A stretch of DNA of 34,174 nucleotides from an uncultured bacterium (lineage in GTDB: Bacteria; Eisenbacteria; RBG-16-71-46). The DNA lies in assembly GCA_964554725.1 (NCBI GenBank), contig CAZKQE010000002.1, forward strand, positions 1 through 34,174, written 5' to 3'. A program made the position numbers and the translations under genes. The notes below the pieces were generated by a model, which did not search any database, was not told the origin of the DNA, and was given only the letters and a program-made list of their open reading frames with translations. Each line of letters opens with the position of its first letter. Position 1 is the first letter of the stretch. Shown here in pieces: positions 1,694-27,754 of this stretch.

Positions 1694-1711
1694 TCAAGAC
1701 GGGGTCAAGAT
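1694..1711 (+). promoter_or_regulatory. Tandem heptads TCAAGAC-GGGG-TCAAGAT (11-bp period), SARP-box-like
   Basis: Read directly: cggTCAAGACggggTCAAGATtcc. It lies in the divergent region between the metallopeptidase and yceI-like genes. No -10-like hexamer sits 8 nt downstream, unlike the other copies. Confidence 0.35.
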
Positions 1712-1765
1712 TCCCGCGCGCGGCCGGTGGGGGCCCTCCCGCGGCATCGATACCCGGTGACGGCC

Positions 1766-1794
1766 TTGGTGGGGCAGCCGGGCGCTGCTACGCT
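1766..1794 (+). promoter_or_regulatory. Candidate promoter TTGGTG-17 nt-TACGCT with TGC extended -10, for the YceI-like gene
   Basis: TTGGTG at 1766-1771, a 17-nt spacer, then TACGCT at 1789-1794. The 10-mer CTGCTACGCT recurs upstream of the cytochrome gene at 27927-27936. Confidence 0.3.
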
Positions 1795-1877
1795 CGCCGG
1801 CCGAACCCCGCACCCGTGCTCGCACACCGGCGCCCGTGGAGCGGACCGTGTGGCAATCCTCGAAAGGAGTCCCGACC

Positions 1878-2546
1878 GTGTCGCGTCGTCTGTTCGCCCT
1901 GTGTGCGGTCCTCATGCTGGTGGCGGGCACCGCCGCCGCCGAGCCGCGACCGTTCCGCATCGACCCCGGCCACTCGCTGGTGGGGTTCAACGTGCGGCAC
2001 TTCTTCAGCCGCACGCCCGGCCGCTTCCGGGAGTTCAACGGCACCATCCAGCTCGACGAGAAGAACCTCGCCGCCTCCTCGGTCGAGGTGACCCTCCAGA
2101 CCGCCAGCGTCGACACCGAGAACGAGCGGCGGGACAACGATCTGCGGAGCGCGAATTTCTTCCACGCCGACAGCTTCCCGACGATCACCTTCAAGAGCAC
2201 GAAGGTGGTCCCGGGCCCCGAGAAGTCGTTCCTGGTCTACGGCGACCTCACGATGCGCGGGGTCACGAAGCCGGTGACGCTCGAGGCGACGCTGCTCGGG
2301 GTCGGTGAGGTCGGCATGGGCGGCCGCCCGCCGCGCACGATCGCCGGCTTCGAGGCGAAGACCACGGTGGATCGCAAGGACTTCGGCATCGTCTGGAACC
2401 GCGTGCTCGACCAGGGCGGCACCATGCTCGGCGACGACGTCCAGATCACGCTCCAGATCGAGGCGGTGTGGATGGACCCCAACGCCCCGCAGCGCCCGCA
2501 GCCGGGCGAGCGACCGGCGGCGACCCCGACCCCCGAGAAGAAGTGA
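1878..2546 (+). CDS. YceI family periplasmic (polyisoprenoid-binding-like) protein
   Basis: Frame of track ORF 1836..2546. Family signature HSLVGFNVRHFFSRTPGRFREFNGTI...ENERRDNDLRSANFFHADSFPTITFKS. The GTG at 1878 is preceded by GGAG (1866-1869) 8 nt upstream and opens a signal peptide, VSRRLFALCAVLMLVAGTAAA. Confidence 0.85.
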   Translation: MSRRLFALCAVLMLVAGTAAAEPRPFRIDPGHSLVGFNVRHFFSRTPGRFREFNGTIQLDEKNLAASSVEVTLQTASVDTENERRDNDLRSANFFHADSFPTITFKSTKVVPGPEKSFLVYGDLTMRGVTKPVTLEATLLGVGEVGMGGRPPRTIAGFEAKTTVDRKDFGIVWNRVLDQGGTMLGDDVQITLQIEAVWMDPNAPQRPQPGERPAATPTPEKK

Positions 2547-2572
2547 CGACCGCGCCGCGACCCGGTTCGTGA

Positions 2573-2609
2573 CGCGACGGCCCCCGGTCGAGGACCGGGG
2601 GCCGTCGCG
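2573..2609. terminator. Bidirectional GC-rich hairpin between convergent genes
   Basis: GCGACGGCCCCCGGTC (2574-2589), loop GAG, GACCGGGGGCCGTCGC (2593-2608). This is a perfect 16-bp stem, 17 bp with C2573:G2609. There is no T-tract. Confidence 0.6.
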
Positions 2610-2627
2610 CATGCGGGGGGACCGGGG

Positions 2628-3254
2628 TCAGTGTCCCGAGGACCGGGGCGCCGTCGAGTCGGGCGGCGCCGCCGGAGCCGCCGCCGAATCCGGATGCGCC
2701 GCGACCCAGGCGTCGTAGCGCGTCTGCAGCGTCTTCCGCTCCGCGGCCGCGCCCAGTCGCTCGAGCCACACCAGCTGCTCGCGCGCCTTCTTCGGCTCCC
2801 CGCGGTCGAGCCACGCCTCGCCCAGGTACTCGCGCGCCGGGGCGTAGTCGGGCTTGATCGCGAGGCAGCGGTCGTACGCCTTGAACGCGAGGTCGTAGTC
2901 GCCGACCTTGCGCGCGCTGTAGCCGAGCAGGTTCCACGCCTCGTGATACCGCTCGTCGAAGGCGACCGCCTTCTCGCAGCGCTCGATCGCGCGGCGGAAC
3001 TTCTTCTCCGCCTGCTTCGCCTTGCCCGACTCGAGCTCCTGCTTCGCCTTCGCGACCTCCTCGTAGGCGAGCGCGTAGCTCGCCTCGGCCTCCTGACGGG
3101 GCGTGGTGGCGCCGGAACCGCCGGCGTTCGTGCCCGGCAGGCCGGCCGGCGTCGGATTGGGAGACGGCGTGCGCGGCTCCTGGGCCATCGCGAACGCCAG
3201 CGAGGCGAGGCACAGGAGCGCGGCGACGGTGAGCGGGGTGAGGCGTGCGTGCAT
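2628..3254 (-). CDS. Secreted TPR-repeat protein
   Basis: Frame of track ORF 2628..3860, but started at the internal ATG at 3254 (GGGGGA SD upstream). This gives MHARLTPLTVAALLCLASLAFA (signal peptide). TPR-like helices follow: YHEAWNLLGYSARKVGDYDLAFKAYDRCLAIKPDYAPAREYLGEAWL. The upstream 200 codons are Arg/Pro junk. Confidence 0.75.
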   Translation of the reverse strand: MHARLTPLTVAALLCLASLAFAMAQEPRTPSPNPTPAGLPGTNAGGSGATTPRQEAEASYALAYEEVAKAKQELESGKAKQAEKKFRRAIERCEKAVAFDERYHEAWNLLGYSARKVGDYDLAFKAYDRCLAIKPDYAPAREYLGEAWLDRGEPKKAREQLVWLERLGAAAERKTLQTRYDAWVAAHPDSAAAPAAPPDSTAPRSSGH

Positions 3255-3472
3255 GATGGTCCCCCGGATGGCGGGTCGGGTGAAGGGAGGCCCCCATTCT
3301 CGCGCAGGAGCGCGGCGGACGGCCACCTCGTTCGATGCCGCGTCCGGGCCGCCGGGTCCGCACCTCACCCGCGACGCGGCCGGCAGCTTCCACCGCGCGG
3401 ACTGCAATCGCCTGTCTCCCTTGTGGTTATGACCGGGCCGATGCGACCCCGCGGCCCCCGGCGGGCGTCCAC

Positions 3473-3504
3473 TCAAGCGGCGGTCAAGGCGGCTGCGGGA
3501 GGAT
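3473..3504 (+). promoter_or_regulatory. SARP-type promoter architecture: TCAAGCG-GCGG-TCAAGGC, 8 nt, GAGGAT
   Basis: Heptads at 3473-3479 and 3484-3490 (11-bp period). GGCTGCGG is at 3491-3498 and the -10-like GAGGAT at 3499-3504. It matches the copy upstream of the 1602-aa protease (27754-27723, minus) at 26 of 32 positions. It points rightward into non-coding DNA and then antisense to the 886-aa protease. Confidence 0.45.
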
Positions 3505-3717
3505 GGCCGCGCGGGAAGGGGCTTCGCCTCTCGGGGGGCGTCGCACCAACCGTCCGGTACGCGGACCGTTCGGCGGGGGCGCGTCGCGGGAGAGCCCGGT
3601 TTCTGGTGCGGCCCCAGGTCCGGAGCTTCGCTCGCGGTCGTGTCCCCCGTCGAGCGCCGTGCCAGGCGGGAGCCGCGGGGCCGGAAGGGGGCGACCGGGG
3701 CGTGGACCCCGGGGGGA

Positions 3718-6378
3718 TCAGCGGCCGACGACGACCAGCCGGGCCACCCCGGCGGCGCCGGCGCGGGCGAAGTAGAGCCCGGCCGCGAGCGGACGCCCGG
3801 CGGCGTCGAGCGCCTCCCAGCGGGCGCGCCACGTGCCCCGGTCCTCCGCGAAGGGAGCACGGCCCACTTCGCGGCCGGCGAGGTCGAAGACGCGCAGCTC
3901 GGCGCCCGGAGCGGACGGGAGCGCGAAGGTCACCGCGGCGCCGCCCGCGACCGGATTGGGACCGGCGAGCATGCGCCCCGTCGGGGTCGGCGCCTCGACC
4001 CCCACCACCGCCGCGGGGGCCGAGGCGTGGACCGTCAGGCCCTCGAACGTCTGGAGCGGCGTGGGTCCGCCCGGGACGCTCTGGTCGCCGCCCGGCTGGT
4101 GCGCGATGACGCGGTAGGCCGCCACGCGTCCGTTGCGGTTGAGGTACCCGCCCTCGGTGACCCGCAGCCACCACACGTTCGCCGGCCCGGGCGGCAGGTA
4201 GGCGGACGCCGCCCCCTGGGGGATGGGGATGGCGAAGGTCCAGGCGATGTTCCCGGCCGAGCTGGCGCCGGTCACCCAGTCGCTCGCGACCGCCGCGGCG
4301 CTCGAGGGCAGCGGGAAGGAGAGCGCCGGCGGCGCGCCGCCCGACCCCGCGACCGACCCGCTCCCGCCGCCCAGCTCGATCGCGGCGTCCACGTCGCTGT
4401 CGTAGGCGTTGTGGACGATCGTCACTTCCACGGTGGCGATCGGCGCGCCGACCGGGCTCACGAACCGACGTGCGGGGCCCGCGTGGCGGACGCCGCCCTC
4501 CGTGTAGGCGACCCGGTACCAGAAGGGGACGCCGCGCTCACCGCCGGGGACGCCCCACGCGCGCGGGTAGCTCTGGAGATTCGTGCCGTCGGCCAGCGAC
4601 GGGTCGCCGGCGGACGCGACCGAGTCGTAGGGCGCGAACATGCCCGGCGCCCCGCCGACGTCCGGCGCGCGCTCGACCACGAAGTGGCCGGCGCCCATCT
4701 CGCGCATCGTGCGCAGCGTGGCGGTGATCTGATCGGTCCCCGCCCGCAGCTCGAGCCGCCGGACCTGCGAGCGCCCGGGCTGGTCGACCTCGAGGAAGGC
4801 CGCGTGCAGGTCCAACGCGCCGAAGCCGATCGGCGAGTACCAGCCGGGGTCGGCGCCACCGACCCCGGCCGGGACGTCGAGCAGCGTGCGGCGCCCGGTG
4901 GCGCGCAGCACCGAGGCGATCGCGGCGGGCGTCAGCGACGGATAGGCCGAGCGCAGGGCCGCGGCCGCGCCGCTCACGAACGCCGCCGCCATGCTGGTGC
5001 CGCTCCGCCGCCGGTACTGGGCGCCGTCGGTGGTCAGGTCGCCGTCGGCCGAGAGCACCGCCACGCCGGGCGCCAGCAGGTCCGGCTTGGCCTCGTCGGC
5101 CGCGTCGCCATCGCCGTCGGTCGCGCGCGGGCCGTAGGCGCTGAACGGCGCGAAGCGGTCATCGTCGTCGAGCGGCGTACGGCGGCCGTCGAGCGCCCCC
5201 ACCGCCAGCACGCGGTCCCCGCCCGCCGGCGAGGGCACGTAGTGGTCGCGACCCTCGTTGCCGGAGGAGGCCACGACCACGATCCCCAGCTCCGCCGCGC
5301 GGTCGGCGAGCCGCGAGGCCAGGTCGCGCCCGTCGGTCTCGTCCACGCTCGAGAGGGACAGGTTGATGACGTCGATCCCGGTGTGGAACGGGTCGCCCCA
5401 GTCCCGCGCGCGGTTGTGGATGCACCAGTCGAGCGCCTCGGCGAGGCCGGTCCCGACGCCGACGTCGTTCAGCACCTTGACGTCCACGAACCGCGCCTCG
5501 GGCGCCACCCCGCGCGCGTAGCCGGTGGAACCGCCGCTGCCGACCACGATCCCCGCGACGTGGGTGCCGTGGGACTGGGTGGCGGTGCCGCCGTGGTCGG
5601 ACGGGTTCACGCTGCCGTCGCGCGGCGTGTCGAGCGTGGAGTCGCCGGAGGTGAACACGGCGCCGCCGAGGCAGCGGCCCAGCAGCGACTCGTGCCCGGG
5701 ATAGTTCCCCTCCGCCGCGTCGTTCACCCCGGTGTCGAGGATCGCCACCACCACGCCGTGGCCCGCCGGCATCCCCATGCCCGACCAGGTCGGGAACACC
5801 TGCTCCTGCGGGTCGCGCACCCCGATCCCGGCGGCCGCCTCGTGCAGGACCGGGTAGAGGATGGGGATGGCCTCGACGCGTTCGACGCCCGGCAGCGCCG
5901 CGGCCGCCTCGGCCTGGGCGAAGGTGGCGACGCTGCGGAGCGCCGGGAGCGCCGTGTAGCGGTGGAGCACCGGCATGCCGAGCGCGGTGAGCGCGAGGAG
6001 GTCCGCGTCGGCGGGCGGCTGCAGGTAGTGGACGTAGACGCCGTAGAGCAGCGAACCCGGGATGCGGGTCACGTCGATGCGCCGGCGCTGCAGGCTGTCC
6101 GCCTGCTCGAAGGCGAACGTGTAGCCCAGCACGTGGACGGTCTCGATGCGGTCGTCGATCCGGTCCTCGTCCTGGTCCCAGATGAAGGGCGCGCCGGCCG
6201 CCGGTCCCGGGACCAGCAGCGTGACGGCCGCCAGCAGCCACGCCGGCCACGCCGCGGCGCCCGCGTGCCGCCGCGCGGCGCGGGCGGACACGACGACACC
6301 TCTCCGGGCGGGCCCCAGGGCGTTCATCGCCGGGAAGTGGACCGCGGAGGGGTTGCCTGGGACTTGACCGAATGCCAT
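3718..6378 (-). CDS. Secreted subtilisin-like serine protease (peptidase S8) with P-domain-like region and FlgD-Ig/T9SS-type C-terminal domain
   Basis: Catalytic triad motifs VVVAILDTGVND (Asp), SHGTHVAGIVVG (His) and SGTSMAAAFVSGAAAAL (Ser). The C-terminus is NPVAGGAAVTFALP...LRVFDLAGREV...GLYFARAGAAGVARLVVVGR. The start is uncertain: ATG 6378, ATG 6327 or GTG 6291 (GGAGAGG SD). A hydrophobic signal segment, AWPAWLLAAVTLLVPGPAAGA, follows all three. Confidence 0.9.
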   Translation of the reverse strand: MAFGQVPGNPSAVHFPAMNALGPARRGVVVSARAARRHAGAAAWPAWLLAAVTLLVPGPAAGAPFIWDQDEDRIDDRIETVHVLGYTFAFEQADSLQRRRIDVTRIPGSLLYGVYVHYLQPPADADLLALTALGMPVLHRYTALPALRSVATFAQAEAAAALPGVERVEAIPILYPVLHEAAAGIGVRDPQEQVFPTWSGMGMPAGHGVVVAILDTGVNDAAEGNYPGHESLLGRCLGGAVFTSGDSTLDTPRDGSVNPSDHGGTATQSHGTHVAGIVVGSGGSTGYARGVAPEARFVDVKVLNDVGVGTGLAEALDWCIHNRARDWGDPFHTGIDVINLSLSSVDETDGRDLASRLADRAAELGIVVVASSGNEGRDHYVPSPAGGDRVLAVGALDGRRTPLDDDDRFAPFSAYGPRATDGDGDAADEAKPDLLAPGVAVLSADGDLTTDGAQYRRRSGTSMAAAFVSGAAAALRSAYPSLTPAAIASVLRATGRRTLLDVPAGVGGADPGWYSPIGFGALDLHAAFLEVDQPGRSQVRRLELRAGTDQITATLRTMREMGAGHFVVERAPDVGGAPGMFAPYDSVASAGDPSLADGTNLQSYPRAWGVPGGERGVPFWYRVAYTEGGVRHAGPARRFVSPVGAPIATVEVTIVHNAYDSDVDAAIELGGGSGSVAGSGGAPPALSFPLPSSAAAVASDWVTGASSAGNIAWTFAIPIPQGAASAYLPPGPANVWWLRVTEGGYLNRNGRVAAYRVIAHQPGGDQSVPGGPTPLQTFEGLTVHASAPAAVVGVEAPTPTGRMLAGPNPVAGGAAVTFALPSAPGAELRVFDLAGREVGRAPFAEDRGTWRARWEALDAAGRPLAAGLYFARAGAAGVARLVVVGR
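6336..6367 (-). promoter_or_regulatory. Degenerate SARP-box-like copy: TCAAGTC-CCAG-GCAACCC, 8 nt, TCCACT, then 8 nt to the ATG at 6327
   Basis: Minus strand reads cggTCAAGTCccagGCAACCCctccgcggTCCACTtcccggcgATG. It lies inside the first 17 codons of the longest ORF call for the 886-aa protease. Confidence 0.25.
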
Positions 6379-6399
6379 ATCCGACCGTGCTCCAATCGT

Positions 6400-9300
6400 T
6401 TACACCGATGTTGCCAGGCGCTCGGGCTGCCGGGCCGGGACCGCGAGCAGCCGCTGCACGGCGCGCGCCGTCTCGGGGAGCGGCTCCACCCCCAGCTCGG
6501 CCCGCAGCAGGCCCTTCAGCTTGTCGTACTCGGCGATCGCGGCGCGCCGCTGGCCGAGCGCGACCATCGCCTCCATCATCGCCAGCCTCGTCGCCTCGCG
6601 GAACTCGTCCAGCTCGGCCGCGCGCCGGAACGCCGCCAGCGCCGCCTCGTGGTCGCCGGCCCCGGCGCAGGCGGCCCCCAGGTCGAGGTGCAGCTTCTCC
6701 ATCCGGTCGCGCGCGCGCGCCTGGAGGTCCTCCGCCCACGGGCCGTAGATCCCCTCGAGGAACGGCGCCGACGCGAGCGCCGAGGCCCGCTCGAGGGCGT
6801 GCCGTCGGGCGTCCGGGTCGCGGGCCGAACGCGCCTCCTCGATCGCGCGGTCCACCTCCCAGGCGTCGCACGCCATCGGGAAGGCGGGGTTCAGGCGATA
6901 GAACTCGCCCTCGCGCAGGATCGCCGGCTCCTTCGCACGCCCGAGCACGCCCCGGACGTAGGACAGCGTCGGGTGGAAGTTGCGCCGGCCCGCCGCCAGC
7001 TGGCGACCCGGCCAGAAGTGCTCGAGCAGCGCGTCCTTGGCGGCCCCGCGCGGATGGAGGGCGAGGAAGACCAGCAGGTGGAACGCGCGCTGGGCCCGCC
7101 ACGCCGAGGCCGGGACCGGCCGGCCCTCGACCTGCAGGTGCGGCGGTCCGTGCAGGACCAGACGCGGCACCCGCGCCTCGACCTGCTCGTCGGCGGCCGC
7201 CCCGCGGGCCAGACGCTCGGCGATGTGGCGCCGGGCGGTGCGCAGCGCCGGCCGCAGCGACCGCCGCGTCGCGCCCAGCCGCTCGAAGGCCTCGTGTGCC
7301 GCCCGGCCGCCCACCTCGCCGAGCAGCGCCACCACCGCCTCGGCCGCCGACGGCGGCGCCTCGGCGAGCGTCTGCAGCAGGGCGTCCTCGATCGCCACCC
7401 CCGCCTCGACCAGCGCCGCCGAGGCGACCTCGGTCTCGATGCCGCGGGCGAGCGCGTAGAGCAGGGGCGCGGGCTCCTCCCGCGCCTGCACGCGCAGGAA
7501 GTAGAGGTAGCCGCGCTCGCGCACCAGCCGCAGCGCCTGCGCGAGATGGGCGTCCACGCTGCGGCGGTCCCCCATCGCGTGGCGGGACTCCCCCAGCCAG
7601 TAGTGGACGCGCATGCGCTGGAAGTCGTTCTCGCCCGCGTCGGCGCGCGCCACCAGCGACTGGAGCAGGTCGCGCGCGACCCGCACGCGGCCGGCCCGCA
7701 GCTCGCACCAGGCGAGGGTCGCGCGGTACTCCGTGAGCTGCGGCGCGTCGGGACGCCCGGTGAGGCGCTCGATCGCCTGGCTCAGGAACTCGACCGCGCG
7801 ACGGTACTGGCCGCGGGCGCAGAAGATGCGGCCGCGCAGCACCAGCAGGTCGAGGGCGATCACCTCCATGCGCAGCTCGGCGTTCAGCTCCTCCGCCCGC
7901 TTCAGCGCGGCGAGCGCCCCGTCGAGGTCGCCGCCCTGGGCGAGGATCTGCGCCAGCGCCTCGTGGCAGCTGGTCTCGAGCGCCCGGTTCGAGAAGCGCT
8001 GCGCCGCCAGCAACCCCTCCTCGGCCGCCCGCCGCGCCTCGGCGAGCTCGCCCAGCTCGGCGAGATGGAACGCCAGGTTCGAGAGGTAGAGCGGTGCGCG
8101 CGGCGAGGCGGTCCCCCGCACCTGCGAGAGCGCCGCCCGGAACTCGCGCGAGGCCTCGTGGAAGCGCCCCTGCGCCGCGTAGGCGCCGGCGAGGTTGTGC
8201 AGGATCGGCAGCAGGAGCTCGGGCTCGGCGGCGGCCGGGAGCATCGCCCGCACCTCGTCGAGCACGCGCACGGCCGCCCGGTACTGTCCGAGGTAGAAGT
8301 GCGCGCCCGCCTTCATCTGCATCAGGCGCGCGCGCACGTCGAGCCCCAGGTCCTGCGCCAGGGCGAGGCCGCGCTCGGCCATCCCGAGCACCTGCTCGTA
8401 GCGGCCGCGCAGGTTGAAGACCTTGCCGAGCCCGATCAGCGCCAGGCACTCGTGCGCGCGGTCGGCGCTCTCGCGGCAGCGCCCGAGCACCTCCTGATAG
8501 AGCCCTTCCGCCTCGTCCCAGCGGCCCAGCGCCTGCCGGGCGTCCGCCAGCGCCACCGCCAGCGCGGCGTCGGAGCGGACCGCCTCGCCCGGAAGGTCGT
8601 CGAGGTACTGCAGGAGCGCCGCGGCGCGGCCCTGCGCGAGCAGGCGCGGGGCCAGGTCGCGCAGCAGTCCGACCGCGTCGGTCCCACGCCCGGCGGCGAG
8701 GAAGTGGCGGAGCGCGCGCTCGGGCTCCCCGCGCGCGGCCAGCGCGGCCGCCGAGTCCGCCTCGAGGTCGCGCCAGGCCCCGGGTCCGCCCGCCCCTTCG
8801 ATCTCCTGCCGGATGAAGCGCCGCACCAGGTCATGGCACTCGTACGAGGCCTGCGTCCCGGTGCCGAAGGTGCGGAGCAGTCCGCGGCGCGCCAGCGACT
8901 CCAGCAGACCGCGCGCGTCGCGGTCGCGCCCGGCGAGCGTCGAGGCCAGGTCGGCGTCGAAGCGCGTGAGCGCGGCGGTGCGCTCGAGCATGCGCCGGGC
9001 GCCCGGGTCGAGCCGCGCGTAGACCTCGGAGGACAGGTAGTCGTGGAGCTCGAGGTTCGAGGCGTGGAAGTCGGCCAGCACCTCCTCGAGCGTCGCCCGG
9101 TCCGAGCGCCGGAGGGATTCGAAGACGAGGTGGACGGCGGTCGGCCAGCCGAGCGTCGTGCGATCGAGGGCGTCGAGCGCCTCGTCGACCAGCGGGCGGC
9201 GGTAGACCTCGGCGAACAGCCGCGCCAGCTCCTCGCGCCCGAGCCGCAGGTGGCTCGAATCGAGCTCGAACACGTCGCCGCGGGCGCGCATCCGCTCGAG

Positions 9301-9858: not shown

Positions 9859-10018
9859 GAGGGTTCCCGGTCGCGCGGCGTCCCCTGCGCCGGGTCCGGG
9901 GGGAGGCCCGCCCGACCCGCCCGGCGGCCGGCGCGACGGCGGCCGCGGGACTCAAGCCTAACAGACCCGAAGTCCCCCCCGACACGATTTCCCAACGGAG
10001 CCTTGGACATCGGCTTGC

Positions 10019-10060: not shown

Positions 10061-10092
10061 TCAAGCCCCGGTCAAGCGGCTGAGGTCAGGGT
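10061..10092 (+). promoter_or_regulatory. SARP-type promoter architecture: TCAAGCC-CCGG-TCAAGCG, 8 nt, CAGGGT, upstream of the 999-aa S8 protease and divergent from the regulator
   Basis: Heptads at 10061-10067 and 10072-10078 (11-bp period). GCTGAGGT is at 10079-10086 and CAGGGT at 10087-10092. The 15-mer TCAAGCCCCGGTCAA is identical to 27754-27740 on the minus strand. Confidence 0.55.
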
Positions 10093-13164: not shown

Positions 13165-13302
13165 ATCGACCCGCGCCCAACCGGGGGAAGGGGACAACCC
13201 GGGGCCGGCGCGGACCGGGGCCGGCGCCCGTCGCGGCCGGCCCTGTCGAGTTCGCCGGCGCGGCCGGCCCGGACCCGTACCCGACGCTCGAGGAGGCATG
13301 CG

Positions 13303-17948: not shown

Positions 17949-17990
17949 GGCGTGTCTCCTGGCTGAGGGTGAGGGTGGACGGACGGACGT

Positions 17991-18025
17991 TGATTGATGA
18001 TTGAATGGTTGATTGGTCATCTATT
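17991..18025. promoter_or_regulatory. AT-rich cluster of TGATTG repeats plus TTGATTGGTCATCTATT, a candidate MarR operator upstream of yceI
   Basis: TGATTG occurs at 17991, 17998 and 18010. TTGATTG-GTCATCTATT (18009-18025, plus strand) matches TTGATTG-ACGC-GTCATCTATT at 18568-18548 (minus strand) upstream of marR. Confidence 0.45.
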
Positions 18026-18715: not shown

Positions 18716-20755
18716 CTAGACGCCGAACACCTCGGGCTCCCACTCGAGCCCCAGCTCGCTCGGAGGGCCCATGTAGCCGAGCAACGCCGAGGAGGCCACG
18801 ACCGCGGGGCTCGCCAGGTATCCCTCGCCCCCCACCCCCATCCGGTTGGTCCAGTTGCGGTTGAACGAGGTGATCGCGCGTTGTCCCCGGGTGAGCGCGT
18901 CGGGACCCTGGCCGAAGCAGGGGCCGCACCACGACTCGCGGATCTGGCCGCCGGCCGCGCGGAACACGTCGGCGATGCTCTCGCCCTCGAGCCGCGGGTC
19001 GGCGGCCTCGATGCGGCGTTTCACCCCTCCCGAGCCCGGGAACACCACGAACTCGCGGGCCGCCCGGGCGAACCCGCGCGCGCGCGCGGCGCGCAGCACC
19101 AGCGCGGCCGAGAGCAGGTCGTTGTAGCCGCCGTTCGTGCACGAGCCGATCATCGCCTTGTCGAAGCCGAGCCGCTCGCGCGCGACCTCCTCGGCCGGGA
19201 AGGCGTTCCCGGGGCTGAAGGGGCGCGCGATCATCGGCCGCACCTCGTCGATCGCCAGCGTCTCGTCGATCTCGTATCGCGCCTCGGCGCCGGGGGCGAT
19301 CGGCGGATAGGGCAGCTCCCCCATCCCCTTCGCACGGAACCACTCGAGCGTGATCTCGTCCGGCGCGAAGATGCCGTTGAACGCCTCGGCCTCGGCCATC
19401 ATGTTGCAGATCGTGTTCCGGAACGCCATCGTCAGCTGGCGTCCGGCGTCCACGAACTCCACCGACATCCCCTGCGACTGCTTCCCGCCCCAGCGCCGCA
19501 GCAGCTCGAGCACCAGGTCCTTGCCGCTCACCCACGGGCGCAGGCGGCCGGCGAACGTGACCCGCCGCGCCCGCGGCACGGTCAGGTAGACGTAGCCGGT
19601 GGACCAGCCGAAGCCCAGGGTCGTGGAGCCCACCCCGATGCCGAGCGCGCCGTAGGCGCCGTAGGCGCGGCTGTGCGAATCGGCGCCGGGGACCACCATG
19701 CCCGGCGTCACCAGTCCCTGCTCGGGGAAGTAGAAGTGGAAGATCCCGTCGCCGGGCGTGGCGTAGTAGGGCTTCCCGATCCCGTGCTGGGTCGCGAACG
19801 CGCGTCCGATCGCGGTCTGGCGCTCGTCCGCCTGGTTGCCGGTGAACACGAAGTGGTCGTTCGCGATCGCGATCTGCCGCGGCCAGATGGTGTCCCCGCC
19901 GGTGATCTGGTTGAAGGTGTGGATCGCGAAGGGCGCCGTGCCGTCCGAGGCCGGCAGCAGGTCGGCGTAGACCCGCAGCGTCGCGCCCGGGCGCACCTCG
20001 GCGTCGCGGTCCACCCGGTGGGCCCACACGATCTGCTCGGTGGTCGTGAGCCCGCGCGCGGTCTCCGCGCCGGCCCAGCGGATCTCGGGCGGCGTCGCGA
20101 CCGAGGCGCGGAACTCCCGCCGGCCGACCGCGAAGATCCCGCCGGTGCTGCGGATCTCCTCCTCCTTGGGGCTGAGCGGCACCGGCTCGTAGCTGCGGCC
20201 CCGCGTCTCGTTGGCGAGCCGGCGGGTGACGGGGTCGAACGTGAGCGTGTCGCCGTCCTGCGCGTCGGCCACCGCCTCGGGGCTCTGCACCACGTGGAGC
20301 CCGAGGTTGAAGGCGTTGCGCCGGAAGATGTCCCCCATGTTGGCGCCGCACACCACGACCAGCTCGAGGCCCGCCTCCTCGGCCACGCCCTTGAGACCGG
20401 CCGGGCTCATCTCGCGCGAGGAGCCGATCGCGAACCGGTCGCCGGCGACCAGGAAGGTCTCGCCGCGGTGGACCCGCGCCCGGAAGTCGGGCATCAGGTA
20501 GCGGAACGAGCCCGCCTTCCAGCGCTCGTCGAGCGTCTCCAGGCTCTCCGAGACGCAGTCGGTGGCGGGCGTGATCTGGTCGGTGTCGATCGCGTCGAGC
20601 TTCCGGCCCGGGGTGCGGGGGTCCCAGAAGATCAGCGCCCGACCGCGGATCGTGGCCCCCTCGCCGGGGCGCGGGACGGCGTCGCCCGCCCGCGGCCCCG
20701 GCAGGGCATCGAGGGTCACGCCCGGCTTGAGGCGCGCGGGCTGGGGGACGGGCAT
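18716..20755 (-). CDS. Aconitase/isopropylmalate-dehydratase superfamily protein with the swivel (LeuD-like) domain fused N-terminal to the catalytic (LeuC-like) domains
   Basis: N-terminal small-subunit-like region: IDTDQITPA...FLVAGDRFAIGSSREMSPAGLKG...VCGANMGDIFRRNAFNLGL. Large-subunit region follows with GADSHSRAYGAYGALGIGVG, GSCTNGGY and SWCGPCFG (Fe-S cysteines). Started at the ATG at 20755 (GGAG upstream) rather than the track start at 20911. Confidence 0.8.
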   Translation of the reverse strand: MPVPQPARLKPGVTLDALPGPRAGDAVPRPGEGATIRGRALIFWDPRTPGRKLDAIDTDQITPATDCVSESLETLDERWKAGSFRYLMPDFRARVHRGETFLVAGDRFAIGSSREMSPAGLKGVAEEAGLELVVVCGANMGDIFRRNAFNLGLHVVQSPEAVADAQDGDTLTFDPVTRRLANETRGRSYEPVPLSPKEEEIRSTGGIFAVGRREFRASVATPPEIRWAGAETARGLTTTEQIVWAHRVDRDAEVRPGATLRVYADLLPASDGTAPFAIHTFNQITGGDTIWPRQIAIANDHFVFTGNQADERQTAIGRAFATQHGIGKPYYATPGDGIFHFYFPEQGLVTPGMVVPGADSHSRAYGAYGALGIGVGSTTLGFGWSTGYVYLTVPRARRVTFAGRLRPWVSGKDLVLELLRRWGGKQSQGMSVEFVDAGRQLTMAFRNTICNMMAEAEAFNGIFAPDEITLEWFRAKGMGELPYPPIAPGAEARYEIDETLAIDEVRPMIARPFSPGNAFPAEEVARERLGFDKAMIGSCTNGGYNDLLSAALVLRAARARGFARAAREFVVFPGSGGVKRRIEAADPRLEGESIADVFRAAGGQIRESWCGPCFGQGPDALTRGQRAITSFNRNWTNRMGVGGEGYLASPAVVASSALLGYMGPPSELGLEWEPEVFGV

Positions 20756-20805
20756 GGGTCGGGTGGCTCCATCGGCGGGGACTCGGCGGACGGCGGGATG
20801 GGCCG

Positions 20806-20834
20806 ATGCTAGCGCGGCCGGTCGAGGGCCGCAA
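20806..20834 (-). promoter_or_regulatory. Candidate promoter TTGCGG-17 nt-TAGCAT for the aconitase-family gene
   Basis: Minus strand: TTGCGG (20834-20829), 17-nt spacer, TAGCAT (20811-20806). The -35 overlaps the last base of the proximal 43-bp repeat. Confidence 0.35.
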
Positions 20835-20969
20835 TCCGGGCGGTGCGCGGCGTGGGCCGCCGGCCGCGCCGCGCGGGGTGTCATGGTCACTGCGGCGTTG
20901 AGGTGTGCCATTGACTGCGGTGCTACATCCGGGCGGTGCGCGGCGTGGGCCGCCGGCCGCGCCGCGCGG
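20834..20969. repeat. Perfect 43-bp direct repeat (two copies) separated by a 50-bp lower-GC spacer
   Basis: ATCCGGGCGGTGCGCGGCGTGGGCCGCCGGCCGCGCCGCGCGG occurs at 20834-20876 and 20927-20969. Each copy can fold as GCGCGGCG...CGCCGCGC (8-bp stem) with an inner GGCC/GGCC pairing. The spacer contains the imperfect repeat ACTGCGG(C/T)G. Confidence 0.8.
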
Positions 20970-21476
20970 TCAGGCGGCGAGGTCGTCCGCGAGCGGGACC
21001 GGCGAGGCGGCGTAGAGGAACACCTCGCGCACGGCCCCCTTGCGCACCAGGAAGGTGCCCTGCCGCGTCGCCAGCGGGAAGAACCGGCCGGGGCCGTTCA
21101 GGTAGTCCGAGACGCGGTTCAGCGGCTCCGGCAGGGCCACCTGAAGCGACCCCTCGAAGGTCTCACCGTCCGCCATGCACACCCGCACCCGCTCCTCGCG
21201 TACGGTGGGGTGCGCCAGCGGCCCGATCAGGTCCGGATCCACCTCGGGACCCGCCATGACCCAGCGGATGTGGGGCCGCGCGAGCAGCACCACGGCGTCG
21301 TCGGCGAGCCGCTCGAACGGCAGGAAGCCGTCGCCCGGCTCGAGCAGCTCGAGCAGGTTCTCGGGACCGGCGTGGAAGGCGGAGTGCGCGAGCAGCGCGA
21401 GCGCTCCCTCGACCGGCGGCCCCCCCGCCACCGAGAGCCACACGGTGACGCGCAGCTTGTCGACGTAGTCGGGCAT
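20970..21476 (-). CDS. Hypothetical cytoplasmic protein with an internal tandem duplication of a roughly 65-aa module
   Basis: ATG at 21476 with a GGGAGGG SD. MPDYVDKLRVTVWLSVAGGPPVEGALALL...GDGFLPFERLADDAVVLLARPHIRWV parallels ERVRVCMADGETFEGSLQVAL...GPGRFFPLATRQGTFLVRKGAVREV. High GC3. No family recognised. Confidence 0.6.
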   Translation of the reverse strand: MPDYVDKLRVTVWLSVAGGPPVEGALALLAHSAFHAGPENLLELLEPGDGFLPFERLADDAVVLLARPHIRWVMAGPEVDPDLIGPLAHPTVREERVRVCMADGETFEGSLQVALPEPLNRVSDYLNGPGRFFPLATRQGTFLVRKGAVREVFLYAASPVPLADDLAA

Positions 21477-21631
21477 GGACCCTCCCGGGGCACGGCCGCC
21501 CCGTCCCCGGGTATCGGCCGGGGCGGGGCGGGGATTGAGGGCCCGCCGCCCGCCCGGCGGGCGACCCGGCAACCGGGACGGCCCCCCGCGCATCCAAGGG
21601 GCTCACCCCGGACCCGGAGGGACGACCCGCC

Positions 21632-22725: not shown

Positions 22726-22749
22726 GCGGCCACCCCGAGGGGTGGCCGC
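22726..22749. terminator. GC-rich hairpin between convergent genes
   Basis: GCGGCCACCCC-GA-GGGGTGGCCGC. Effectively a 10-bp stem with a CGAG loop. Confidence 0.5.
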
Positions 22750-22786
22750 GGTGCCCGCGACCGGGCCCGGGCGGGGCCCGCGTCGC

Positions 22787-25700
22787 TCAGCGGAGCAGGG
22801 CGAGGCGCCGCTCGAAGCGGCCCTCGGGGGTGACGAGGCGATAGAAGTAGAGCCCCGAGCGCGCCCGCATCCCGCTCTCGTCCCGCCCGTCCCAGGTCGC
22901 GCGGTGGATGCCGGCGTCGTGCATGCCGCCCGCGATCCGCCGCACCTGCCGCCCCTGCGCGTCGTAGATGTCGAGCGTGACCTCGCCCGGCCGCGGAAGG
23001 CCGAAGGAGATCGAGGTCGGTCCGGCGGCCGGGTTGGGGGCGTTCTGGGCCAGGAACGCGACCGGCGGCGCCCCGCCCTCGACGGCCACCACCGGCGGCC
23101 CGTTCACCTGCACCTCGCGCGAGGAGGCCGGCCCCCAGTTGCCCTGGGTGTCGCGCCCGCGCACCCACAGACGGCGCACGCCGGGCGAGAACGGCGTCGT
23201 GTCGAGACCGATCGAGACGTCCACGGTCTGGGCGCCGAACGCGCCCGACATCGGCGTCCCGCTCCCGGCCGGGGCCGGCGAGTCGCCGATCGACCACTCG
23301 GCCGCGGCGACGGTGCCGGACCCGGTGTTCTGGTCGCTGATCCGCGCCACCAGCGTGGCGGGGTCGGGCCGCACGATCGGGTTGGGACTGGCGGCGATCG
23401 AGCCGGCGACGACGATCGGACCCTGCAGGTCCCCGCCCGCGCGCTGGAGCGCGAAGTCCGCGTTCGACGCGTCGCCGGCCGAGAGCGCCGGCGTCCCGTC
23501 GTCCGTCACCCGGATGCGCACCCGGGCGCCGACCGTGTTGGGGACCGCGGAGAGGTCCCAGCTGTACGGGCCGGGACCCACCCCGGTCGCCAGCGGCTGC
23601 CAGGAGGATCCGCCGTCCAGCGACATCTCGAGCGTGCGCGAGACGATCGCGCGCCCCGGTCCGGCGGTCTCGTTCCAGGTGATGTCCACCGCGCCCGCGG
23701 TCACCACCTCGCCGCCGTTGGGCGCGGTGATCTCGACCGTCGGCCGCGGCCGGCCCAGCAGCCACAGCACGGTCTTGCCGAGCAGGTCGTTGCGGGTGGC
23801 GCTCGCGGCGTTGAACGGCGGCGCCAGCGCCGTGAACTCGAGGAAGAAGTTCGCCAGCCGCGACGGCAGCCCGCCCCAGAAGGCGGTGCCGGCGCTGCCG
23901 TTCGGCGTCGCGCTCTCCCAGCGGAACGCGACGTGGTCGGGCGTGGCGTCGCCGCCCGCGTTCAGCAGCGTGTAGCTGCCGATGCCGCCGGCGAGCGGAT
24001 GGATGTCCACCTCGTCGCCGGCCCCGCCGCTGCGGACCGGCGTGTAGGGGATCCCAGTCGTGTAGCCCCCGGTGATCGGGTCGCCGGCAATGCCGATCGC
24101 CTGCGACCAGGTGGCGGGGTCCGCCTGGTACTGCGCCCGCAGCGTGGTCTCGACCCACAGCCGGCGGTCGGGAGTGAAGGCGGGCGAGGTCGGGTCCGAG
24201 AGCCCCCAGGCGATGTCGTGGCCGTTCACCATCAGCCGGCCGCCGCCGTCGAGGTAGTCGGTGATGCGCGTGCGCGCGGCGTCGCTGAAGGCGGGATAGG
24301 CCTCGAGGCCGGGCTGCCACAGCACCGCCTGGTAGGCGCGCAGGCCCGAGGCGAGGTTCCCGAGCGGCGGGTCGTTCGCCAGCGCCTCGCCCCACAGGTC
24401 GTAGTCGATGCCGTTCGCCTGCAGCGCGCTCTCCCACGTGACCGTGCGCTCGAAGCCGTCCGCCCCCAGCACCAGGAGCACGTCGCCGCGCGCCTTGGCC
24501 GTGAACCGGTAGTGCTGGCCGCCGAGGTCGTCGCGCACCAGGTTCCCGCTCAGCGACACCGACTCGACGTCGTAGTAGTAGGTGGCGCCCAGCGTGAGAC
24601 CGGTCAGGTCCACGGTGTGGGCGAGCGGGTGACCCGGGCCGTCGACCGCGCCCAGCTCGAGCGCCGGCGTCAGGCCGTAGTAGACCCGCGAGGAGGCGTT
24701 GAGGTGGGTATCCCAGGCGATCTGCACGCGGCCGCTGCCCTGCGGCAGCGCCCGCACGTTCGTGATGATCGGCGTCGCCAGGCTCACCTGCGCCCCCGCC
24801 TGGAGGGTGGCCGCCGGCGACGCGTCCACGTAGGTGGCGGTGATCTGGTCGCCGTGGGCGACCGACAGCAGGCCGTCCACGGTCGAGACGTCCGCCGGGG
24901 TGAGGGTGACGGCGCCGGAGTAGAGCCCGTTCGCGCCGGACAGGGTGACGACCAGCGGCGTGGTCTCGGTGTCCGAGACCAGGCTGACGTTCACGCTGGG
25001 GCCGGCGTTCGTGTCGGTGACGCGGAGCTCCACGGTCCCGGTCGAGCCGTACTCGGCGCGGTCCAGCGCCAGCGTCCCGGCGTCGGTGCCGACGCCGCCG
25101 GTGACGCACAGACCGAACGGCTGCGGCCCCATCGGCACCGCCGCCGCGTCGATGCGGATGGTCCAGATCCCGGTCGCCGGGGCCCCCACCAGCACCGCCT
25201 CCTCGACGTTGCGGTTGTCATGGCTGCCGCCGGTCACCGAGAGACCCGCCGCGTACACGTTGCCCTTGTAGCTGGTCGCGCCACGGCTCACCGTCAGGTT
25301 CAGGTTGTTGACCAGCTGCACGGCCGCCGCCGGGTTGCCCGGGAAGTCGGTCCAGCACAGCGAGACCTCGAGCGGCACCCCGCCGTCGACCACGTTGACC
25401 TGGTACTCGACGAACTGCCCCGCGCCCAGGCCCTCCGTGTGGTCCACCAGCAGCAGCTTGCGCGCGTCCCCGGCGAAGTAGAGCACCTCGTCGGCGACGA
25501 TCTTGCCGTAGCCGACGTTGTGGTCGGGGGCGGTGAAGCCGGTGACGACGTTCGCCGCCGCGTTGATGCCCATCGCCTTGAGCAGGGCGGCCGAGGGCGT
25601 GAACCCGTTCGCCGGCACCTTGGTGCCGGTCGGGTACCAGCCCTCGGTGCAGTACTGGCGGATGAGCGTGATCGCCCCGGTCCCCGACGGACACGCCATC

Positions 25701-27595
25701 GAGGTGCCGGAGAGCGGCGCATACGATCCCGGCGTGCCGCTGGCGGAGATCAGGCTCACCGCCGGGCTGCAGAAGGTGGGCTTGCGACGGGAGTCCTGAC
25801 AGGGACCGCGGCTGGTCGAGGTGTAGATGCCGGTCGAGGTGCCGTTCTGCGTCCCGCCCGCCCCGGTCGAGTTCTTCGCCGTGGCCGGCGAGCCGACCGA
25901 GCCCGCGGTCCCCGAGTTCCCGGTCGCGAACGCCGCGTAGAAGTCGGGGTGGTTCCACAGGAACTGGTCCGTGGTCATCGCGTGGAGCGTGTAGGCCCCG
26001 GACACCGCCCCGCCCCAGGAGTGCGAGGAGACCCGCGCGCCACCGGCGGCGTTGCCGGCGTAGGCCGGCTGGTACAGGTCGTTGAGGTCCGGGAATGCGT
26101 CCACGCCGTTCAGCAGCGTGGTGCCGCCGATGTCCATGAAGTACATCTTCGCCTCGGGCGCCATGCCGTCGAACGGGATCGCGCCTCCCGAGGGGGCGTC
26201 GTTGCCCAGCACGGTCCCGGCGGTGTGGGTGCCGTGGAACACCGCGCCGGGATGGTCGCCGAACTCGACCGCCGGGTTGTTCGACCCCTTCTTGTAGCCG
26301 ATGATCTTGCGGTGGGTCGGGTAGTCGCCGAAGTCCACGATCGGCACCAGCGGGTCCACGAACATCTCGTGGTCCACCTGGATGCCGCTGTCCGAGGTCA
26401 TCACGATCTGCCCTTCCCCGCGGATCCCCATGTCCCAGACGCGCCGGTTGCCGTTCAGGTTCGTCTGCACCACCCACTGCGCCTGGTCGTTGTAGAGCTC
26501 GAGCGGCACCACCGGCTCCACCCAGGCGACCTCGGCCCGCGCCGACACCGCCGGCAGCAGCGCCGGCGCGGCCTCGAAGCGAACCATCTTGTTGATGCCG
26601 TTGTCCCAGGTGTCCACCAGCGTCACGCCGAGCGCGGTCAGGCCCGCCGCGGTGGCGGCGAGGTCCGCGTCGGGGAACAGCAGGACGGTGTAGCGCTGCG
26701 GCCCCGGGCCGCCGGGGCCGGCGACCGGGCTCACCTTGTACGCCGGCTGCCAGTCGCCCACCCACGCCACGCCGGGCTCGGCCGCCAGCCGGGCGGCGGC
26801 CGCCGCGGTCATGCGCACGAGGTAGGCGTGGTCGGGGATGTAGGTGTGGACGGCGCCGCCGGCCGCGGTGATGCGGGCGACGTCCTTCGCGGTCGGCATG
26901 GCGGAGAACTGGACCAGGTAGGCACGGATCGACGCCGGGTCGCCCCCGTCCGTCGCCGCGCGCAGCCCGGCCGGCACCTCGGGCAGACCCTCGGCCGGCG
27001 CGAACTCGTAGCCGGCGGACAGCCGGATGCGGGGCGGCGACGAGGCGTCCGCGGAGGCGGCCGCCGTGCGGTCCGCGGCCCCGACCGTCCCGCGCCGCGA
27101 CTCGCGCAGGTAGGGCGAGGCGGCGACCCGGTTCATGAAACGCGGCTCGGCCGTGAACGAGCGCACCTCGCTGACCCGCAGCGCGCCGGTGGCCCCGTCG
27201 ACGTGGGCGACCGCCCACCAGAGGGCGGTCGGCGCCTCGACCCGCAGGCCGGCATCGGCGAGGGACAGCAGCGGCCCGGTCAGGTCCCGCACCACGAACC
27301 CCTCCCCCGCGGGGACGGCGGTCCAGCCGGCGGGGTCGAAGGCCGCGCGCGAGAGCACCAGCCGCGGCTGGCGGGCGCCGACCGGGAGCTCGAACGCGAA
27401 GCGCACGGCGCTCTCGACCAGCCGGGCGCCCGACTCGGGCGCGATCGGGCGCGCGCGTCCGACCCGGGCGGCGTCCTCGGGACGGATCGAGGCGTGCGCC
27501 GGCAGGGGGACGGTGAGCGAGAGCGCCAGGCCGAGCAGCGCCAGCGCGAGCGACCGGGGGAACCGGTCGAATCCAGTCCCGATCCTCGGGGTCAT
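22787..27595 (-). CDS. Giant secreted subtilisin-like serine protease (peptidase S8) with multiple accessory domains and FlgD-Ig/T9SS-type C-terminal domain
   Basis: GGAGGAGG SD before the ATG at 27595. Signal peptide MTPRIGTGFDRFPRSLALALLGLALSLTVPLPAHA. Triad motifs IVMTSDSGIQVDH (Asp), FHGTHTAGTVLG (His) and SGTSMACPSGTGAITL (Ser). Asp-box SLDGGSSW. C-terminus PNPAAGPTSISFGLP...LDIYDAQGRQV...GLYFYRLVTPEGRFERRLALLR. Confidence 0.9.
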   Translation of the reverse strand: MTPRIGTGFDRFPRSLALALLGLALSLTVPLPAHASIRPEDAARVGRARPIAPESGARLVESAVRFAFELPVGARQPRLVLSRAAFDPAGWTAVPAGEGFVVRDLTGPLLSLADAGLRVEAPTALWWAVAHVDGATGALRVSEVRSFTAEPRFMNRVAASPYLRESRRGTVGAADRTAAASADASSPPRIRLSAGYEFAPAEGLPEVPAGLRAATDGGDPASIRAYLVQFSAMPTAKDVARITAAGGAVHTYIPDHAYLVRMTAAAAARLAAEPGVAWVGDWQPAYKVSPVAGPGGPGPQRYTVLLFPDADLAATAAGLTALGVTLVDTWDNGINKMVRFEAAPALLPAVSARAEVAWVEPVVPLELYNDQAQWVVQTNLNGNRRVWDMGIRGEGQIVMTSDSGIQVDHEMFVDPLVPIVDFGDYPTHRKIIGYKKGSNNPAVEFGDHPGAVFHGTHTAGTVLGNDAPSGGAIPFDGMAPEAKMYFMDIGGTTLLNGVDAFPDLNDLYQPAYAGNAAGGARVSSHSWGGAVSGAYTLHAMTTDQFLWNHPDFYAAFATGNSGTAGSVGSPATAKNSTGAGGTQNGTSTGIYTSTSRGPCQDSRRKPTFCSPAVSLISASGTPGSYAPLSGTSMACPSGTGAITLIRQYCTEGWYPTGTKVPANGFTPSAALLKAMGINAAANVVTGFTAPDHNVGYGKIVADEVLYFAGDARKLLLVDHTEGLGAGQFVEYQVNVVDGGVPLEVSLCWTDFPGNPAAAVQLVNNLNLTVSRGATSYKGNVYAAGLSVTGGSHDNRNVEEAVLVGAPATGIWTIRIDAAAVPMGPQPFGLCVTGGVGTDAGTLALDRAEYGSTGTVELRVTDTNAGPSVNVSLVSDTETTPLVVTLSGANGLYSGAVTLTPADVSTVDGLLSVAHGDQITATYVDASPAATLQAGAQVSLATPIITNVRALPQGSGRVQIAWDTHLNASSRVYYGLTPALELGAVDGPGHPLAHTVDLTGLTLGATYYYDVESVSLSGNLVRDDLGGQHYRFTAKARGDVLLVLGADGFERTVTWESALQANGIDYDLWGEALANDPPLGNLASGLRAYQAVLWQPGLEAYPAFSDAARTRITDYLDGGGRLMVNGHDIAWGLSDPTSPAFTPDRRLWVETTLRAQYQADPATWSQAIGIAGDPITGGYTTGIPYTPVRSGGAGDEVDIHPLAGGIGSYTLLNAGGDATPDHVAFRWESATPNGSAGTAFWGGLPSRLANFFLEFTALAPPFNAASATRNDLLGKTVLWLLGRPRPTVEITAPNGGEVVTAGAVDITWNETAGPGRAIVSRTLEMSLDGGSSWQPLATGVGPGPYSWDLSAVPNTVGARVRIRVTDDGTPALSAGDASNADFALQRAGGDLQGPIVVAGSIAASPNPIVRPDPATLVARISDQNTGSGTVAAAEWSIGDSPAPAGSGTPMSGAFGAQTVDVSIGLDTTPFSPGVRRLWVRGRDTQGNWGPASSREVQVNGPPVVAVEGGAPPVAFLAQNAPNPAAGPTSISFGLPRPGEVTLDIYDAQGRQVRRIAGGMHDAGIHRATWDGRDESGMRARSGLYFYRLVTPEGRFERRLALLR

Positions 27596-27722
27596 GACGG
27601 GCCTCCTCCAGTGGGGTGCGCCGGCGGCGCGTTCGCCTGCGGAAGGCGGACACGGTCGCCGGTCGCCGGGGACATGCCGGGCGCCGCCGGCGCGACGCGC
27701 GCGGCGGCCCCGGGACGCGGAG

Positions 27723-27754
27723 AGCCTCCCGCCGCCGGGTTGACCGGGGCTTGA
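27723..27754 (-). promoter_or_regulatory. SARP-type promoter architecture: TCAAGCC-CCGG-TCAACCC, 8 nt, GAGGCT, upstream of the 1602-aa protease
   Basis: Minus strand: TCAAGCC (27754-27748), CCGG, TCAACCC (27743-27737), GGCGGCGG (27736-27729), GAGGCT (27728-27723). An additional single TCAAGCC sits on the plus strand at 27818-27824, facing the cytochrome gene. Confidence 0.55.

Follow-up and report, generated by a model that had tools for sequence, protein, structure and literature searches.

A tandem heptad box at secreted protease promoters and a candidate MalT-SARP regulator in Candidatus Eisenbacteria

What reads the short tandem repeats that stand before secreted protease genes in Candidatus Eisenbacteria? 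The question is raised by a 34,174-nt stretch of DNA (contig CAZKQE010000002.1, positions 1-34,174, assembly GCA_964554725.1, forward strand; hereafter, the window), in which an earlier examination of the letters only (the sequence-only reading) had noticed a heptad repeated at an 11-bp period. It had proposed that a nearby regulator with a DNA-binding domain of the type named SARP (for antibiotic regulatory proteins of Streptomyces) acts through these boxes on a regulon of proteases sharing a C-terminal domain (CTD). There is, in our judgement, very little doubt that the boxes function as the signal of a regulon, and it appears quite probable to us that a ligand-gated chimera of MalT and SARP (called REG in this study; 1152 aa, 6400-9858, minus strand) activates through them the genes of S8 proteases equipped with a sorting signal of the type IX secretion system (T9SS).

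The tandem heptad and its occurrence

The motif TCAAG-N6-TCAAG is present exactly at three positions of the window, namely 1694, 3473, and 10061, all on the plus strand, and was never produced by dinucleotide-preserving shuffling (n=100; mean 0.00, maximum 0); three exact copies against none in the shuffles are therefore not a matter of chance. Allowing up to one mismatch adds a copy on the minus strand (27754-27739), which makes four observed against 0.25 expected, and a fifth copy, also on the minus strand (6367-6350), has two mismatches. These five boxes are designated m1 (1694-1711, plus), m2 (3473-3490, plus), m3 (10061-10078, plus), m4 (27737-27754, minus; TCAAGCC-CCGG-TCAACCC), and m5 (6350-6367, minus; TCAAGTC-CCAG-GCAACCC). 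When the window was scanned with a position-weight matrix trained solely on sites from other genomes, the five sites came out as the top five (m2, 32.3 bits; m4, 30.1 bits; m3, 29.3 bits; m5, 22.1 bits; m1, 19.1 bits); the next-best score was 10.3 bits, and in shuffled DNA most maxima fell at 5-12 bits and a single one reached 18.4 bits. Two weak sites on the minus strand, at 10018 (10.3 bits, upstream of REG) and 18004 (9.5 bits, near a second YceI gene), are within the range of the shuffles and were not counted.

The comparison of the window with its relatives was based on 33 related loci centered on REG homologs (390 kb including the window), and the survey of spacers covered 438 kb of related DNA; individual loci are cited by number (e.g., L001) where coordinates are given. 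Owing to the G+C content of 74%, genes in the window were called by third-position GC. All of the eight related genome loci are metagenome-assembled genomes (MAGs) of Candidatus Eisenbacteria, and homologs of REG were also found in soil metagenomes; those with an organism name are nearly all from MAGs of this phylum, with one labelled Saccharimonadaceae.

Exact TCAAG pairs with the 6-nt spacer number 31 in the 438 kb, and each of the other spacers between 0 and 25 nt gave three pairs at most, except for N22. This second peak was rejected as a spacing of its own, since it reduces to one orthologous coding position in a tetratricopeptide repeat (TPR) gene. From the 390 kb, 50 distinct boxes were aligned, anchored on the first T from which index positions are counted, and their consensus is TCAAGYC-N4-TCAAGNN. 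All five copies in the window are outside the coding regions supported by third-position GC; indeed, coding cores hold none of the 50 distinct sites (0/50) even though they cover 68% of the bases in the 390 kb. The sequence-only reading was thus right about the recurrence of the heptad, its intergenic placement, and its departure from chance, and three of the checks that it had proposed (counting boxes in coding against intergenic DNA, scanning with a matrix, and comparing orthologous loci for the joint retention of regulator and box) came out in its favor.

One might still regard the copies as leftovers of a promoter-region duplication or of a small repeat with no regulatory role, in view of the similar flanks of m2, m3, and m4. 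Conservation is, however, confined to the heptads and two positions of the -10 hexamer, while the flanks diverge freely, and orthologous promoters have retained the sites across deep divergence, with none appearing in coding sequence; such an origin is highly improbable in our view.

Promoter geometry and the genes behind the boxes

Behind three of the boxes, an NAGGNT hexamer is found 8 nt past the second heptad, as the sequence-only reading had described: GAGGAT at 3499-3504 for m2, CAGGGT at 10087-10092 for m3, and GAGGCT at 27728-27723 for m4. In the alignment, A occupies index 27 in 32/50 sites and T occupies index 31 in 40/50, against a background of ~14% each, and these positions played no role in the selection of sites; the enriched bases correspond to A(-11) and T(-7) of an NANNNT -10 hexamer at index 26-31, which begins 8 nt after heptad 2. 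At the -35 position, the boxed promoters read AGCCNN, and TTG is absent among the 50 aligned sites; ordinary promoters in the same loci read TTGNNN-17-TANNNT. Judged from this alignment, the boxes at protease promoters fill the place of the -35 element and end 8 bp before a -10 of the housekeeping type (NANNNT). The hexamer is in register at the protease, m2-type, and regulator promoters and out of register at the sites upstream of YceI genes, which are described later. The geometry that had been claimed as that of SARP sites, i.e., direct heptads at 11 bp of which the final heptad ends 8 bp before the -10, is hence not peculiar to the window but conserved across the related loci.

A box occupying the -35 place and marking genes of specialised exported proteins might also be the upstream element of an alternative sigma factor, for example of the extracytoplasmic function (ECF) type, instead of an activator site, and ECF sigma genes are indeed present in L036 and L037. 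A sigma factor would nonetheless read a single -35 element, whereas the boxes repeat one unit two or four times in an 11-bp phase; the -10, with A at position 2 and T at position 6, is of the housekeeping and not of the ECF form; and the conservation of the YceI-type box with no -10 in register would be intolerable for a sigma element. We consider this explanation very unlikely.

In terms of the activator site, the most conserved class is the promoter of S8_A (3718-6327, minus strand), which occurs once per lineage. S8_A is a subtilase (Peptidase_S8, E=2.8e-43) with a T9SS-type CTD as matched by a local hidden Markov model (HMM) of this domain; its promoter has box m5, a -10 of TCCACT at 6341-6336, and ATG at 6327. 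Wherever the sequence extends far enough, which is the case in 21 other distinct lineages, the stop codon of REG is followed by an ortholog of m5, and each distinct locus reaching this position has an exact or one-mismatch box 75-85 nt past the REG stop, in the orientation of REG, down to 43% identity of REG. Since both departures of m5 from the consensus (GCAA and the final C) occur in other lineages as well, and since its position is that of the most conserved class, the previous label of "degenerate" for this copy does not hold. A third heptad at the S8_A promoters was also considered and rejected, as no TCAAG signal was found 11 or 22 bp upstream. In the closest relatives, the order of genes is REG, box, S8_A, reversed box, a gene for a TPR protein, YceI (reversed), reversed box, a Peptidase_Mx-like gene, and an ATP-grasp gene.

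The start codon of S8_A (ATG or GTG) is found 6-8 nt past the -10 in 20 of the 22 lineages, by which the S8_A mRNA would probably be leaderless; with this register, the start of S8_A in the window is placed at 6327. The Peptidase_Mx-like gene and its orthologs also have a sigma-70-like promoter (in the window within 1600-1697, minus strand), TTGTGG-17-TAGCAT, with GTG 8 nt on, and the two cases together suggest that leaderless mRNAs may be common in this lineage. Between the REG stop and m5, furthermore, there is a conserved element (6368-6410, minus strand; ~ATTGGGGC.C.A....GGTTR), of which the equivalent is found 10-40 nt upstream of the box in L002, L008, L010, L013, L016, L028, L030, and others. 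It is not a third heptad and could be a terminator remnant, an UP-like element, or the site of a second factor.

The other two subtilases of the window also have boxes. S8_B (10165-13164, plus strand), with a FlgD_ig / Por_Secre_tail CTD, has m3 at its promoter in the divergent region common to REG, and two other loci have a box placed likewise in the region divergent from REG: L002, where an 84% ortholog of S8_B follows, and L026, where a 36% S8_B-like gene is near the box (5171) and no downstream gene was called. S8_C (22787-27595, minus strand) is a 1602-aa subtilase with Peptidase_S8 and FlgD_ig domains and a T9SS type A sorting domain, and m4 marks its promoter. The three subtilases and an LTD/PPC/MAM protein (13845-17171, plus strand) share the ~80-aa FlgD_ig / Por_Secre_tail domain at the C terminus, which is the T9SS type A sorting signal; with TIGR04183, S8_C scores 26.3 bits and passes the cutoff of 23, and the LTD/MAM protein and S8_B score 22.7 and 20.9 bits, respectively. 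The matrix scan of the window found no box at the CTD-tagged LTD/MAM gene, and no component of the T9SS machinery (PorU/PorV/SprA and others) is encoded in the window.

Boxes are also present far from REG. Around four orthologs or paralogs of S8_C with no REG within 10 kb, loci of 25 kb each (L034-L037) were also compared, and each has one strong box (27.9-31.1 bits) 107-160 nt upstream of an S8_C-type gene on the same strand, with CAGGGT, CAAGGT, CAGGCT, or CAGGAT in register. Three of these loci are located at 46, 246, and 482 kb of one 525-kb contig. Boxes at such a distance from REG indicate a gene set dispersed across a genome and read by a trans-acting factor. In L037, the site before the S8_C paralog (9871-9909, plus strand) is composed of four tandem 11-bp TCAAG/TCAAT units as opposed to the usual two, which echoes the two- and three-heptad variants described for SARPs.

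The sites can accordingly be sorted by what they precede, and the set of genes is a restricted one. Besides the S8_A promoters, there are sites before other S8 or CTD proteins (10061 and 27754 in the window; L001 7048; L002 2267; L006 5926; L026 5171; L034-L037), CTD-only small open reading frames (ORFs; L004, L009), the regulator gene itself (L021, L017), and secreted proteins in which no Pfam match was found (L020, L024). The YceI type (1694 in the window and six other genomes) and the m2 type (3473 in the window; L001, L008, L010, L028) do not fit a simple model of protease promoters. The proposed regulon of CTD-tagged proteases stands, therefore, insofar as boxes mark S8 genes both near and far from REG, but m1, m2, and the LTD/MAM gene fall outside it. 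The CTD-only ORFs (L004 16660, minus; L009 9753, minus; L036 14877-15074) are 65-140 aa long and scarcely more than the T9SS-type CTD, and two of them follow a box; what is left of deleted cargo genes, or else CTD proteins that stand on their own, may be encoded there.

A MalT-type body with a SARP-type C terminus

REG is composed of a MalT-like P-loop NTPase and TPR_MalT body followed by a C-terminal winged helix-turn-helix (wHTH) and BTAD, and it is the only wHTH+BTAD protein that Pfam and NCBIfam detect in the window. It is also encoded between two S8 protease genes and has a divergent region in common with S8_B, both of which agree with the sequence-only reading. Pfam assigns AAA_22 to residues 46-162, TPR_MalT to 484-787, and BTAD to 997-1138 (E=9.4e-14), with GYGKTT as Walker A and LLVLDDF as Walker B. 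In NCBIfam, residues 17-784 align with positions 2-766 of the 903 in the MalT profile (E=3.4e-71), with a score of 240 bits that is below the equivalog cutoff of 537. Since the alignment ends at position 766 of the profile, REG has all of MalT save the LuxR-type DNA-binding domain; instead, residues 882-1139 match the SARP region of AfsR (E=3.6e-9). The homologs in relatives are 54-86% identical to REG and have equal length and equal architecture.

A profile made from 18 C-terminal domains matched AfsR (E=2.8e-9) and EmbR (E=3.5e-6) in the PDB over the full 240 residues. The AlphaFold model of the C-terminal domain has a mean pLDDT of 93.2, and its top six Foldseek matches are AfsR SARP protomers in the initiation complex (8k60, 8hvr; TM 0.76-0.78) and EmbR (TM 0.80); the remaining matches are generic TPR proteins with E of 1e-3 or weaker. 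As modelled, the C terminus of REG has a true SARP fold. Within it, homologs with an overall identity of 52-76% show hardly any variation in FWPGRQ..AGRRNFHPTLSY.R, which is, from its alignment to AfsR, probably the DNA-recognition segment of the wHTH; an invariant recognition stretch would fit the invariant TCAAG core of the boxes.

SARPs are known to bind direct repeats 11 or 22 bp apart, of which the 3' repeat is 8 bp from the -10 and overlaps the -35 (PMC10936776, PMC10972967). The afs box, for example, extends from -40 to -19 and so covers part of the -35, and two SARP protomers are accommodated there side by side and contact region 4 of the sigma factor (PMC10936776, PMC10972967, PMC7040171). 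REG and its boxes resemble this family in several respects: the wHTH is directly followed by BTAD, the sites are heptameric direct repeats with an 11-bp period, and the 3' repeat is 8 bp from the -10 with the box replacing the -35, save at the YceI-type sites. On the other hand, the SARP domain of REG is not N-terminal but occupies residues ~880-1140 of 1152 behind the NTPase and TPR regions, and the host is not an actinobacterium, whereas a review published in 2024 describes SARPs as exclusive to actinobacteria (PMC10972967). The heptamers are also close, as GTCAGSS (PapR2) and CGGCAAG (PimR, SanG, PolR) (PMC7040171, PMC5930380) have a TCA/CAAG core in common with TCAAGYC and its GCAAG variant found here.

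Among individual regulators, AfsR and the large SARPs of Streptomyces (SARP-NOD-TPR) are built from the same wHTH+BTAD, STAND (signal transduction ATPase with numerous domains) NTPase, and TPR modules. The afsS promoter has the same site grammar, namely two 11-bp repeats over the -35, with 8 bp between the final repeat and a weak -10, and the modelled C terminus of REG superposes on AfsR in its initiation complex. Nonetheless, the order of domains is reversed in REG with the SARP at the C terminus, its body is MalT-like, its host belongs to Eisenbacteria, its heptamer is TCAAGYC, and the targets here are secreted proteases but not antibiotic pathway genes. PimR and other SARP-LAL proteins are likewise chimeras of a SARP domain with an ATPase body of the MalT type, or LAL (a large regulator that binds ATP and belongs to the LuxR family); PimR binds direct repeats of the heptamer CGGCAAG with 4-bp spacers (PMC5930380). 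Unlike REG, however, PimR has an N-terminal SARP domain and an operator clear of the -35, and it is an actinobacterial regulator of a single pathway.

MalT of Escherichia coli, which belongs with the LAL regulators to the closest known systems, is an activator gated by a ligand and by ATP, and its sites are short direct repeats. The N-terminal 770 residues of REG align with the MalT profile, including the P-loop NTPase followed by the MalT-type TPR sensor as in MalT/STAND proteins, but the C-terminal LuxR-type HTH is not present and is replaced by wHTH+BTAD, and the box occupies the place of the -35 and not a place further upstream.

While the boxes would be a genuine regulon signal in either case, they might be bound by another tandem winged-helix protein encoded elsewhere, such as an OmpR/PhoB response regulator, with the adjacency of the MalT-SARP protein to its target being incidental or reflecting a different role. 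PhoB binds pho boxes, in which two 7-bp direct repeats 11 bp apart replace the -35, and this arrangement also typifies other activators of the PhoB type; furthermore, boxes far from REG imply a trans-acting factor, whose gene could be anywhere in the genome. Nevertheless, the series of REG, box, and S8_A is kept in every distinct locus at 43-86% identity while all other neighbors change, and no response regulator with a winged-helix output is encoded in the window or among the annotated genes of L034-L037. The distance of 8 bp to the -10 follows the rule of SARPs, and REG itself has no receiver domain. In addition, the REG gene itself is preceded by a box in two lineages. Another binder is hence an unlikely, but not a negligible, explanation.

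The regulator gene has a strong box with an in-register -10 at 4685 (plus strand) of L021 and at 2785 (plus strand) of L017, which suggests positive autoregulation of REG in these lineages as far as the promoter sequences tell; upstream of REG in the window, there is only the noise-level match at 10018 (minus strand).

Because REG and the box are linked throughout the phylum and REG is the sole protein with such a domain nearby, we regard REG as the probable reader of the boxes. We infer that REG binds them, that the outcome is activation rather than repression, and that a ligand gates the process. In the proposed mechanism, the TPR domain would sense a ligand and REG would bind ATP and then oligomerise, and two SARP domains would come to lie side by side on the two heptads. 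RNA polymerase would be recruited through contact with sigma region 4, as in the "sigma adaptation" by AfsR, and transcription would start 6-8 nt past the -10 to give a leaderless mRNA at the protease gene adjoining REG.

Several points weigh against activation of the protease genes by REG. The link of REG to the boxes comes from linkage and from the type of domain, and as OmpR/PhoB-type proteins have a nearly identical grammar, a SARP cannot be told from these by geometry alone. Every described SARP has its SARP domain at the N terminus, and a side-by-side dimer would have to be formed here from C-terminal domains. For the genome with the 525-kb contig, furthermore, the genes compared were those around the S8_C-type genes, with no regulator within 10 kb. 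Finally, the YceI-type box has no -10 in register, and m2, the best-scoring box, has no downstream gene.

Atypical boxes, neighboring genes, and the wider regulon

Box m1 is flanked by two divergent genes, the Peptidase_Mx-like one (minus strand) and that for a YceI-family periplasmic protein (1878-2546, plus strand; Pfam YceI E=1e-49, start codon checked), and it is conserved in seven genomes, i.e., the window and six others. The YceI gene has a promoter of its own, TTGGTG-17-TACGCT, of which the -10 is ~77 nt downstream of heptad 2 of m1; being out of register with any -10 and so far upstream of this one, m1 is not a promoter box of the class-II type. It could act on transcription from a distance, interfere with the promoter of the divergent gene, or have some other role. 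The second YceI protein, YceI2, is encoded at 17331-18020 on the minus strand.

Box m2, too, drives no protease gene, as it is convergent with S8_A and directed toward the 3' end of that gene, with no annotated gene downstream, and this position and orientation are retained in L001, L008, L010, and L028. Downstream of m2 is a conserved non-coding block of ~100 nt (3554-3658, plus strand; GTTCGGCRGGRGCGCG...CCGG..CTGGTGCGGCCCCAGG), which was matched by nhmmer in four genomes with E of 1e-17 to 1e-22 and was present only in the four genomes that define it; the other copies are at L001 10741-10837, L010 7622-7715, and L028 3638-3734 (minus). A small protein after m2 was considered and rejected, because three-frame translations in five genomes have no common frame or start and the block contains a 1-nt indel. 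A long helix is predicted in the block, with a few compensatory pairs and several G-U pairs that favor the plus strand of the window. In Rfam, neither the whole window (at gathering thresholds) nor 3250-3750 (at E<=1) had a match, so that no riboswitch or known small RNA accounts for the m2 site, and a scan for sigma-70 promoter and terminator consensus around m2 found nothing. On this thin support, the block is a candidate for a small or antisense RNA that could be driven by the box. If REG drives such a transcript, convergent on the lead protease gene, this would parallel AfsR, which drives the small afsS gene.

Some of the neighboring genes also deserve mention. The S8_C-type protease gene always has a gene for a multihaem cytochrome as its divergent neighbor (~27970-29805 in the window, plus strand; L034 7856-9670; L035 7769-9607); the pair shares the box-bearing intergenic region, and this synteny persists where nothing else is common. 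In the 680 nt between S8_B and the LTD/MAM gene (13165-13845, plus strand), there is an ORF of 182 aa (13303-13851) with high third-position GC and a signal-peptide-like N terminus but no box; neither this ORF nor that at 20970-21593 has a match in Pfam. The aconitase-family protein encoded at 18716-20911 (minus strand) is permuted, with an Aconitase_C-like segment N-terminal to the catalytic domain, and a weak intein-splicing match is found inside the aconitase gene of L034 (1-1471). Besides the proteases, REG, and YceI, the window encodes a MarR regulator, aconitase-family proteins, an HtrA-like protease, the multihaem cytochrome, TerB, and an amidase.

The sequence-only reading did not recognise a described system here; in agreement, no published description was found, and the literature on SARPs outside actinobacteria or on protease regulation in Eisenbacteria gave nothing relevant. 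A broader picture, to which we assign somewhat less than an even chance, is that promoter activation by SARPs, in which two winged-helix/BTAD protomers on 11-bp repeats take the place of the -35, is old and crosses phyla, and that a MalT-bodied sensor with a C-terminal SARP domain would be a genome-wide switch of T9SS proteases, with feedback on itself in some lineages, and would drive a non-coding transcript from m2.

The phylum Candidatus Eisenbacteria is widespread in soil, has no member in culture, and is almost uncharted as to the control of its genes. The present results offer a concrete regulon in this phylum, for which the box is sharply defined, transcription starts are predicted, and a regulator can be proposed; its targets form a coherent set of secreted proteases, which bears on how Eisenbacteria feed on protein in soil. 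The promoter grammar and the fold of SARP are also extended beyond actinobacteria, in a reversed order of domains and in fusion with a MalT-type sensor. If REG truly binds the boxes, the "sigma adaptation" known from AfsR would be far more widespread, and the box could be used to predict protease regulons from metagenomes.

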